Shown here in pieces: positions 14,988 to 16,387 of a stretch of DNA of 64,000 nt. The number at the start of each line of letters is the position of its first letter. Position 1 is the first letter of the stretch. Where the stretch lies: the NCBI RefSeq assembly GCF_003334385.1, contig NZ_QOWN01000004.1; one strand, 5' to 3'. A program made the translations under genes and the position numbers. The notes under the pieces were generated by a model. The model did no database searches and was not told where the DNA came from. It was given only the letters and a program-made list of their open reading frames with translations. Source of the stretch: Escherichia coli (lineage in GTDB: Bacteria; Pseudomonadota; Gammaproteobacteria; Enterobacterales; Enterobacteriaceae).

Positions 14988-15087
14988 GCCTGATGCGCTT
15001 CGCTTATCAGGCCTACATAAGGCATTGCAACTGATTGAATGCTTGAGAATTTGTAGGCCGGATAAGGCGTTTACGCCGCATCCGGCA
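14988..15087. repeat. REP/BIME palindromic units between yjeI and yjeJ
   Basis: Imperfect palindromes gcctgatgcgcttcgcttatcaggcctac and gtaggccggataaggcgtttacgccgcatccggca typical of E. coli REP elements. Confidence 0.7.
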
Positions 15088-15155
15088 TGACCAACGATCA
15101 CGTTATCAGTCATTTCAGGCTGGATGGCTCCAGCCTCGCATTAGCAAAGATGAGA

Positions 15156-16025
15156 TTATTTCGCCTGTGGTGCAGTTTTGCTGGTGGATTGAACACGTAA
15201 GTGATGCAGCGCGCGTAAGCATTGATCCTGGGTTAGCGGTTGGGCGTTATTCGCCGCTACGGTGCGAACATAGACCTGACATGGCACACCCGCGAGTTTT
15301 TTCAGTCGTGGGCTGAAATCAAGCATTCGGCGAGTGATCGCTTCTATTTCTTTACCCGGCGTTGCTTCACGCGTTTTCACCACTGCGCCGCTAAATTGTT
15401 CTTTGCCACTTTCATCTTTAAAGCGGTAAAGCACCGCCAGATAATGGTCGAACAAGTTATGTTTCCATTCCGGTTGGGAATAGGTGTCATATTCCAGATT
15501 GCCATTGTCCTGGCAGTCAACGTCGTATAACGGCAGGAAATCTAACAGTGAGGTAATACGTAATGCCAGTTCACGCATTTCCGCATTATTAATTGCATGA
15601 ATGATTGCTCGCGCCAGCATTTCAATCTGCAACTCATTGACGACTAACTCACATTTGCTACCGTCATGTAGCGTTAATACGAAGGTAAGATTTTCGCCTT
15701 GATTATCGGTAAGTTCCAGCGTGTTAACCCGACGATTAATATCGGCATTTTTAAGCTCATCAACCAGAATTTCTGGGATGTTTTCTGCCATTTTCTTAAT
15801 GACTTTATCGCGAGCTTGCTCATACTGAAGGTGTGCAGCAGCATCCAGTTTATGCTTTTGATGCAGACGACTTTCCAGCGCAATCAGCAGGTCGCGCAGT
15901 TCCATGACAGACATAAAGAACAACGATTCTTTATTGCGAGGTTCTTTAATTTTCAGCGCCAGTGCAATGAAATTATTACTCTTGCGAATAACACCGGTAT
16001 TAACACCCTTGATGCTTATGGCCAT
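15156..16025 (-). CDS. yjeJ: uncharacterised protein YjeJ
   Basis: ORF-track 289 aa; recognised as YjeJ; no motif I can assign; AT-rich upstream region. Confidence 0.85.
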   Translation of the reverse strand: MAISIKGVNTGVIRKSNNFIALALKIKEPRNKESLFFMSVMELRDLLIALESRLHQKHKLDAAAHLQYEQARDKVIKKMAENIPEILVDELKNADINRRVNTLELTDNQGENLTFVLTLHDGSKCELVVNELQIEMLARAIIHAINNAEMRELALRITSLLDFLPLYDVDCQDNGNLEYDTYSQPEWKHNLFDHYLAVLYRFKDESGKEQFSGAVVKTREATPGKEIEAITRRMLDFSPRLKKLAGVPCQVYVRTVAANNAQPLTQDQCLRALHHLRVQSTSKTAPQAK

Positions 16026-16288
16026 GTAGGTTCTCCCTAACCATTTCTCAATTAAATAATTAATTTTAATTTATAAGCCAGATAAATGGGCTTGGTAGTA
16101 ATAGTTGTTAAAATAACATAAATAGCCGTACTCACTCTATATAAACAGAAAAGAAAGGTTAATTATTGGTGTTAGCTATATAAAAAGTAACAACAGCAAT
16201 GCATATGAATAATTAAAGGTTATGCAACGGGCAAAGATTAAACTTCCCAGTTTAATGACAGGTTGCTGTACTTGCGTTTGTTGCTCTT

Positions 16289-16387
16289 GCCGGATGCAGC
16301 GTAAACGCCTTATCCGGCCTACAGTTCATTGCAAATCCATTCAATTTCAATGCACGATGTAGGCCTGATAAGCGTAGCGAATCAGGC
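16289..16387. repeat. REP/BIME palindromic units between yjeJ and epmB
   Basis: tgccggatgcagcgtaaacgccttatccggcctaca and gtaggcctgataagcgtagcgaatcaggc. Confidence 0.7.

Follow-up and report, generated by a model that had tools for sequence, protein, structure and literature searches.

The DNA analysed here is a 64,000-nucleotide stretch of Escherichia coli contig NZ_QOWN01000004.1 (the window), and the gene under study is yjeJ, which in E. coli K-12 is still among those without a functional lead. The window is a K-12-type chromosome segment with 100% identity to K-12-derived records, and carries in order yjeH, groES, groEL, yjeI, yjeJ, epmB, efp, ecnAB, sugE, blc and ampC. yjeJ is encoded on the same strand as epmB and opposite to groES-groEL-yjeI, and its open reading frame (ORF) bears the RefSeq label 'YjeJ family protein'. 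A preliminary description made from the letters had pointed to a 289-codon ORF lying between two clusters of repetitive extragenic palindromic (REP) elements, with an AT-rich region upstream, and every one of these elements was recovered. Each cluster is a bacterial interspersed mosaic element (BIME). The coordinates are collected in Table 1.

Table 1. Features of the yjeJ locus, in positions of the window
Feature	Positions	Strand	Details
yjeJ coding sequence (b4145 in MG1655)	15156-16025	minus	289 aa, ATG to TAA; PF15922 over its full length
AT-rich leader/promoter region	16026-16260	minus	GC 0.289 vs 0.512 for the window
Shine-Dalgarno sequence GGGAG	16032-16036	minus	6 nt before the ATG; invariant in five aligned Escherichia sequences
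Sigma-70 promoter TTAACC-17 nt-TAGAGT	16134-16162	minus	-35 at 16157-16162, -10 at 16134-16139; genomic SELEX (systematic evolution of ligands by exponential enrichment; PMC3946193)
8-bp hairpin GGCTGGAGCCATCCAGCC	15120-15137	minus	just past the yjeJ stop codon; no T-run
Downstream BIME (yjeI/yjeJ spacer)	14981-15095		Z-type REP 14988-15018, Y-type REP 15053-15087
Upstream BIME (epmB/yjeJ spacer)	16280-16394		Y-type REP 16289-16323, Z-type REP 16357-16387
Insertion/deletion unit holding the upstream BIME	16238-16416		19-nt direct repeats TTAAACTTCCCAGTTTAAT (16238-16256) and TTTAACTTCCCTGTTTAAT (16398-16416)

Residues 1-283 of YjeJ align with the whole of Pfam model PF15922 (YjeJ-like; 1-283 of 283, E 7.3e-175), and no other Pfam model matched. 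Searches of NCBIfam and PADLOC gave no match, that of PHROG a non-significant match at best (E 0.063), and a sequence search of the PDB nothing significant (best E 0.27). The preliminary description could place the protein in no family by eye; PF15922 is its one match. A full-text literature search found no paper naming PF15922 or its family name, and a search for 'b4145' returned noise only. The protein is soluble, without a transmembrane segment (19-residue hydropathy maximum 1.23; pI 7.7); the 'inner membrane protein' label that many Salmonella enterica YjeJ fragments carry in the AlphaFold database (AFDB) is wrong for such a protein. The AlphaFold2 (AF2) model is of high quality (predicted local distance difference test, pLDDT, 93.2; predicted template modelling score, pTM, 0.88) and shows a globular alpha/beta protein with repeated units of beta-sheet plus helix. 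Foldseek matched this model to nothing in the PDB at E ≤ 0.001; its AFDB50 matches were chiefly members of the YjeJ family, joined by Pseudomonas proteins of about 280 aa that share 13-15% identity. In the family no residue but W187 and K217 is invariant, which argues against YjeJ being an enzyme or a nucleic-acid binder.

Examination of divergent YjeJ homologues revealed a recurrent gene neighbourhood. Among those neither adjacent to epmB nor borne on plasmids, all eight examined (Klebsiella pneumoniae, K. quasipneumoniae, Budvicia diplopodorum, Entomohabitans teleogrylli, one Enterobacterales genome, GCA_036409475.1, and three metagenomic clusters) sit 9-30 bp after exporter genes, namely an HlyD-type adaptor (membrane fusion protein, MFP) and a Peptidase_C39 ABC transporter (peptidase-containing ATP-binding cassette transporter, PCAT). 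The exporters match models of bacteriocin export and type I secretion (T1SS). One to three adjoining ORFs encode peptides of 86-122 aa that start with MKELTVFEM..ISGG or ..SAG, a double-glycine leader, and have hydrophobic cores with 21-24% glycine and a conserved tail, GWD...F.PW; one of them gave weak Pfam matches to Bacteriocin_IIc and MccV. A chaperone-usher fimbrial operon precedes the YjeJ-exporter cluster in all cases. Judged from gene neighbourhood, the PF15922 family is tied to double-glycine peptide export operons, and this link is new. No small membrane ORF was seen in the Klebsiella clusters as a conventional immunity candidate, and the peptide sequences found no match in the supplement of one microcin-mining paper.

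In K. quasipneumoniae, a 12-kb island exactly fills the interval between epmB and yjeI, with a GC content of 37.9% against 56.8% in the flank, and contains a regulator, fimbrial genes, adaptor, exporter, YjeJ and peptides. The island also abuts yjeI in K. pneumoniae, Entomohabitans and GCA_036409475.1. The same module occupies a different chromosomal site in Budvicia, and so travels as a unit. Two further features of K. quasipneumoniae loci were recorded. In the stretch 11077-12165 of locus L063, yjeJ is followed downstream by a 95-aa double-glycine peptide of a different, non-glycine-rich type and then by one or two near-identical tandem 106-aa glycine-zipper peptides, whose copy number differs among strains. 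In locus L064, a gene with group II intron reverse transcriptase domains (RVT_N, RVT_1, GIIM, HNH; 13030-14697) lies between yjeI and groEL.

The E. coli locus lacks this machinery. No exporter is present at the yjeJ site in any of the 5426 complete E. coli genomes, and when the Klebsiella adhesin, peptides, MFP and PCAT were compared by tblastn with the E. coli spacers, no decayed copies came to light. In Escherichia, Citrobacter, Kluyvera, Trabulsiella and other genera, yjeJ stands alone behind its own AT-rich sigma-70 promoter. The genome GCA_036409475.1 holds both arrangements (8001-10606): two yjeJ paralogues separated by a GerE-type regulator, one coupled to the exporter and the other beside yjeI, the latter being 41-44% identical to E. 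coli and Citrobacter YjeJ versus 27% to the operon copy. Very probably, then, E. coli yjeJ is an orphan of a microcin-operon-linked family, at a site where relatives carry the whole island. The preliminary description had called the gene an orphan, and it would be one in a stronger sense than was meant there, as the solitary remnant or paralogue of a microcin operon gene. In our reading, PF15922 genes have their home at the end of a class-II-microcin-type operon, made up of chaperone-usher fimbrial genes, one to three double-glycine glycine-zipper peptides, an HlyD-type adaptor, a C39 ABC exporter and YjeJ, and E. coli yjeJ is probably the lone survivor after loss of the island.

The components of these operons diverge at different rates. 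Between operons, the PCAT is 67-82% identical and the MFP 69-76%, versus 40-50% for the peptides and 22-44% for YjeJ. Such variability of peptides and YjeJ against a conserved exporter and adaptor is the signature expected of a peptide-recognising protein, and the pattern agrees with that described for published microcins, in which the exporter is conserved while the peptide and its partner vary (PMC9746304).

yjeJ is found in 5384 of 5426 complete E. coli genomes. An exhaustive scan of 1.84 billion cluster representatives returned only 97 clusters, about 22 of them full-length, and a profile search in the 90% database gave close relatives only, adding nothing. A genome scan with a 7-sequence alignment located 45 yjeJ loci, essentially all in Enterobacteriaceae, with the order efp-epmB-yjeJ-yjeI-groEL at every one that had enough flank. 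The occupation of the same epmB-yjeI slot across Enterobacteriaceae indicates vertical inheritance. Identity to the E. coli protein across genera is 40-75% for YjeJ, 83-93% for EpmB and 93-100% for GroEL, and the rate of nonsynonymous substitution (dN) of yjeJ between genera is 4-5 times that of epmB. Relative to the synonymous rate (dN/dS) it is 0.05 within Escherichia and 0.076 within the Citrobacter freundii complex, similar to epmB. yjeJ is a genuine, expressed and selectively maintained gene. In Citrobacter sp. NCU1 and Awk 4, YjeJ is 40-41% identical to that of E. coli (67-75% in other Citrobacter), with neighbours that are normal for the genus (EpmB 89%, YjeI 91-92%), which hints at allele replacement at the locus.

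The composition of the gene is atypical. Its GC content at third codon positions (GC3, 0.452) is the second lowest among 43 long ORFs of the window (median 0.566); the lowest (0.39) belongs to the ORF at 2187-3725 on the minus strand. As expected of an H-NS-silenced xenogeneic gene, both yjeJ (GC 0.452) and its upstream region (0.289) fall below the GC of the window (0.512). The low GC3, the same locus in about 45 genomes and the 37.9%-GC K. quasipneumoniae island with its yjeJ homologue all bear out the earlier suggestion of ancient acquisition. The preliminary reading would have lost its ground with a gene universal in Enterobacteriaceae, of typical composition and clear homology-based function; yjeJ is widespread in Enterobacteriaceae, yet its composition is atypical and homology assigns it no function.

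Some records fall outside this picture. Enterobacterial yjeJ sequences occur under the names Bacillus coahuilensis, a Bacteroidales metagenome-assembled genome and Chryseobacterium, and in those of Trichuris trichiura and Thelohanellus kitauei (UniProt A0A077ZBR0, A0A0C2JF96); these non-enterobacterial records are almost certainly contaminated or mislabelled. Several S. enterica AFDB entries present YjeJ as fragments. The epmB-yjeJ-yjeI interval also takes in other DNA: Kosakonia and Phytobacter have about 2.1 kb extra after yjeJ (locus positions 6860-8990), which in the Kosakonia locus that was read encodes a 572-aa ORF resembling a methyl-accepting chemotaxis protein by eye, and Citrobacter youngae has a 572-aa unknown protein before yjeJ (locus positions 4060-5778). 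These insertions were considered as island remnants and rejected as unrelated cargo.

The AT-rich region upstream of yjeJ has the lowest GC in the 64 kb, just 0.03% of 235-nt windows being equally low; four other stretches of the window are at or below 33% GC (1814-2270, 3702-4068, 51786-52116 and 61372-61742). The equivalent spacer has a GC of 0.24-0.38 in most of the orphan-state genera that lack a REP there. The sigma-70 promoter is conserved in the Escherichia alignment, although a simple consensus promoter scan missed it. In the genomic SELEX tables, the yjeJ-epmB spacer has a constitutive RpoD promoter and no H-NS mark, 24% of comparable spacers being marked (PMC3946193). YjeJ protein was quantified in cells grown in lysogeny broth (LB) (PMC9508795), and a preprint lists yjeJ among Nac-regulated genes and gives it as down-regulated in long-term nitrogen starvation (bioRxiv 10.1101/2020.03.30.016519).

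These data do not support the preliminary view of yjeJ as possibly H-NS-silenced; consisting of SELEX tables and protein detection, they leave room for partial repression. The AT-rich gene, its very AT-rich upstream region and the use of a yjeJ deletion as a linked genetic marker (PMC10679819) would suit a silenced xenogeneic gene without current function in E. coli. We consider such a gene quite improbable, given the strong purifying selection, the almost universal retention in E. coli, the constitutive promoter without an H-NS SELEX site, the detection of the protein in LB and the reported Nac regulation with its nitrogen-starvation response.

Each BIME consists of one Y-type and one Z-type REP in opposite orientation, separated by a linker of about 34 nt. 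All four are extragenic imperfect palindromes of about 35 nt fitting GCC(G/T)GATG...CATC(C/A)GGC; the Z-type REPs are of the GCCTGAT...ATCAGGC form and the Y-type of the GCCGGAT...ATCCGGC form, with shuffled-sequence expectations of 0.02 and 0.00 matches. One BIME is an inverted copy of the other, matching over 60 nt at 83% and over 44 nt at 93%. Rfam returned naRNA4 matches only, below threshold, for the REP clusters; naRNA4 is presumably a REP-derived family. The consensus for integration host factor (IHF), WATCAANNNNTTR, occurs with 1 mismatch at 15028-15040 in the downstream linker, and no site with at most 1 mismatch was found in the upstream linker. In consensus, extragenic position, opposed pairing and stable hairpins, these elements resemble other E. 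coli REP/BIME sequences, including the repetitive IHF-binding palindromic (RIP/BIME-1) class, and are unusual only in occupying both spacers of one gene in the source strain; unlike in RIP/BIME-1, the IHF site is approximate in one linker and absent from the other. The yjeJ 3' untranslated region, including the downstream BIME, folds stably (z = -5.0). The hairpin past the stop codon is kept in 5 of 5 Escherichia sequences, including the one without REPs, and is a possible weak terminator or stabiliser.

Comparison among strains revealed that the bracket is variable. The upstream BIME resides in an insertion/deletion unit of about 160 bp that comprises the BIME and about 40 nt of non-REP sequence; its 19-nt direct repeats match at 17 of 19 positions and derive from the sequence that follows directly on the epmB stop codon. 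When filled sites were aligned with empty ones, strains without the BIME showed a single copy of the repeat. The upstream BIME, scored by its intact junction, is present in 3251 of the 5426 complete E. coli genomes and the downstream one in at least 2994. Neither is found in an O16:H6 strain, whose spacers measure 49 and 234 bp as against 202 and 394 bp in the window, and the upstream one is absent from O157:H7 and from E. albertii. A search for the REP patterns in both yjeJ spacers of a dozen genera outside Escherichia found none; the only REP-like palindrome seen at this locus outside Escherichia was one in Citrobacter, spotted by eye, that overlaps the stop codon of yjeJ. The description of yjeJ as REP-bracketed thus holds for the source strain and fails as a property of the gene, since each BIME occurs in about 55-60% of the complete E. 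coli genomes and some strains have neither. As the position of yjeJ is constant in strains and genera without BIMEs, the REPs neither brought nor define the gene. They are ordinary extragenic elements, strain-variable and incidental to yjeJ. The BIMEs would be recent insertions into both spacers, unrelated to the gene, with effects on mRNA stability or local recombination at most.

We also considered whether yjeJ, with inverted BIMEs on its two sides, forms a mobile or recombination cassette bounded by REPs, in which the bracket would explain the presence of the gene. The inverted relationship of the two BIMEs and the direct repeats around the upstream one could be read in this way, as could the recurrence of ampC amplicon ends in the yjeJ/epmB spacer (PMC12625342). 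This idea is hardly credible and was rejected on comparative grounds, being already contradicted by the data: the place of yjeJ does not change in E. coli strains that have a single BIME or none, it is equally placed in the dozen genera whose spacers yielded no REP (the Citrobacter palindrome aside), and the presence or absence of each BIME varies independently.

In E. coli ET761 (NZ_CP100914.1), the gene for an IS110-family IS621 transposase replaces the yjeI side of the downstream spacer (equivalent to about 15010), and the match to the window begins only at query position 114. IS621 targets REP sequences, and the ET761 copy looks like an insertion into the downstream BIME. In a study of amoxicillin evolution, the yjeJ/epmB spacer (16260-16419) holds the starts of five independent ampC amplicons, and the yjeI/yjeJ spacer that of one more; REPs go unmentioned in that paper (PMC12625342), and the BIMEs are plausible recombination substrates for these events.

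The function of YjeJ was considered in light of its operon partners. YjeJ would be a soluble cytoplasmic protein acting on variable glycine-zipper peptides. The retention of yjeJ under purifying selection where peptide and exporter are both missing is easier to reconcile with protection than with export. That YjeJ neutralises these peptides as a protective partner, and was kept as an orphan against the peptides of neighbours, is the likeliest single reading, which we hold tentatively. In orphan immunity genes of polymorphic toxin and bacteriocin loci, as in yjeJ, the gene is kept without its toxin, diverges fast between lineages and is under purifying selection within them, and an extra copy may stand beside a complete operon, as in GCA_036409475.1. 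yjeJ shows the pattern by which such genes are recognised, having a homologue in complete loci, no toxin here, and variation between with constraint within lineages. The exporter-coupled and yjeI-side copies of GCA_036409475.1 likewise recall orphan immunity arrays. The orphan-immunity concept is applied to YjeJ by analogy.

Known systems share part of this organisation. Class II microcin clusters (MccV cvaABC-cvi, MccS, MccPDI) comprise a peptide, an immunity protein, a PCAT and an HlyD-type adaptor, and relatives of yjeJ similarly lie beside a PCAT, an adaptor and double-glycine glycine-rich peptides; the neighbourhood expected of a microcin immunity gene is present around 8 of 8 divergent homologues examined. 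Unlike such clusters, the E. coli yjeJ locus has no other component, and YjeJ-type clusters are always joined to a chaperone-usher fimbrial operon. The CdzI system has two small glycine-zipper peptides, type I export and a dedicated protective gene (PMC5380434), a likeness shared by the Klebsiella and Entomohabitans clusters, whose glycine-zipper peptides come in tandem. CdzI is, unlike YjeJ, predicted to have three transmembrane domains, and no homology was detected between the two.

Several points weigh against the reading of yjeJ as an island orphan with a protective role. Verified class II microcin immunity proteins are described as having 51-216 aa, with a tendency to lie in the inner membrane and to contain transmembrane helices (PMC9746304), whereas YjeJ has 289 aa and is a soluble, globular alpha/beta protein. 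It is hard to see how a cytoplasmic YjeJ would stop a membrane-active peptide that reaches the cell from the periplasmic side. In one metagenomic operon (L056), a small two-helix ORF right after YjeJ is a possible real immunity gene. An AF2 model of K. pneumoniae YjeJ fused through a linker to the pre-peptide gave no confident docking (peptide pLDDT 25-56, pTM 0.65), which is weak negative evidence as it rested on 7 paired sequences with no contact output. The McaB protein of Acinetobacter baumannii, a cupin, was first called an immunity factor and later an activity factor required for killing, the true immunity gene at its locus being a hidden 56-aa membrane ORF (PMC13188072). Both McaB and YjeJ are large soluble proteins beside a microcin and its exporter; their fold families differ, and McaB serves as a caution rather than as a homologue. 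yjeJ is broken in representatives of Salmonella diarizonae and arizonae (ORFs of 148 and 215 aa), and the use of its deletion as a marker, mentioned above, is a further point. The island may have been gained beside an older yjeJ, a direction opposite to loss. Finally, on Serratia MOBP plasmids a YjeJ homologue of 25% identity is paired with a soluble protein of 101 aa (phrog_2100, function unknown), and no exporter or peptide was found near these loci.

An export (holding or escort) or activity role is less likely in our view. In its specific form, YjeJ would hold or escort aggregation-prone glycine-zipper precursors in the cytoplasm, as a secretion chaperone or activity factor, and the E. coli copy would be a leftover that has drifted to another role; this we judge rather unlikely. 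A soluble protein without a transmembrane segment, encoded 9-30 bp past the exporter gene and co-diverging with the peptides, is what such a factor would look like; the Acinetobacter soluble accessory protein needed for activity rather than immunity (PMC13188072) is a precedent, and in L056 a two-helix candidate for immunity comes after YjeJ. A chaperone without substrate should decay, yet dN/dS is 0.05-0.08 in Escherichia and Citrobacter, where peptide and exporter are missing; GCA_036409475.1 retains a second copy of E. coli type away from the operon; and the YjeJ-peptide fusion showed no docking.

The Serratia gene pairs (L068 7536-8846, L069 7563-8840) lie in a plasmid-establishment region, among genes for ArdR, SprT-like, ParA, H-NS-like, Hha and topoisomerase proteins. 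Upstream of the 101-aa gene is a LexA-box-like (SOS-box-like) palindrome, TACTGTATGCATACACAGTA, and AT-rich repeated motifs flank the gene. This setting would be consistent with YjeJ being a nucleic-acid-binding (PUR/Whirly-like) or regulatory protein whose microcin link is regulatory or incidental. That role appears improbable. YjeJ has no sequence-level relation to PUR repeat proteins (Pur-alpha), and the Foldseek support is weak, with PUR matches at template modelling (TM) scores of 0.2-0.4 and none in the PDB at the threshold given above. In addition, the pI of most of the family is acidic (5.0-6.1), a rare property among nucleic-acid binders, PF15922 is the sole Pfam match, and the invariant residues are limited to W187 and K217.

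Weighing the evidence on both sides, we regard the explanation of yjeJ as an island orphan with a peptide-directed, likely protective role as about evenly balanced. If YjeJ were not protective, its REP bracket and AT-rich leader would be ordinary, and yjeJ would remain a conserved gene of unknown role.

The link between YjeJ and these operons exposes a blind spot of microcin mining, in which pipelines seek small membrane immunity proteins of at most 250 aa. The cinful pipeline caps immunity candidates at 250 aa (PMC9746304), so that YjeJ would be excluded, and the one conserved non-transport gene of YjeJ-type clusters would be missed. Klebsiella-clade matches were reported in nearly all assemblies by microcin mining (PMC9746304), and the YjeJ-type clusters may be the loci behind them. 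It is possible, and we suggest it with reserve, that PF15922 represents a so far overlooked class of immunity proteins, soluble and cytoplasmic, which neutralise class II microcins of the glycine-zipper kind, and that the orphan copy kept at the old island site by E. coli and many other enterics provides standing protection against the microcins encoded by Klebsiella-clade neighbours at the same locus. If YjeJ is protective, it would represent a new mechanism of microcin immunity and a case of long-term orphan-immunity retention in gut Enterobacteriaceae.

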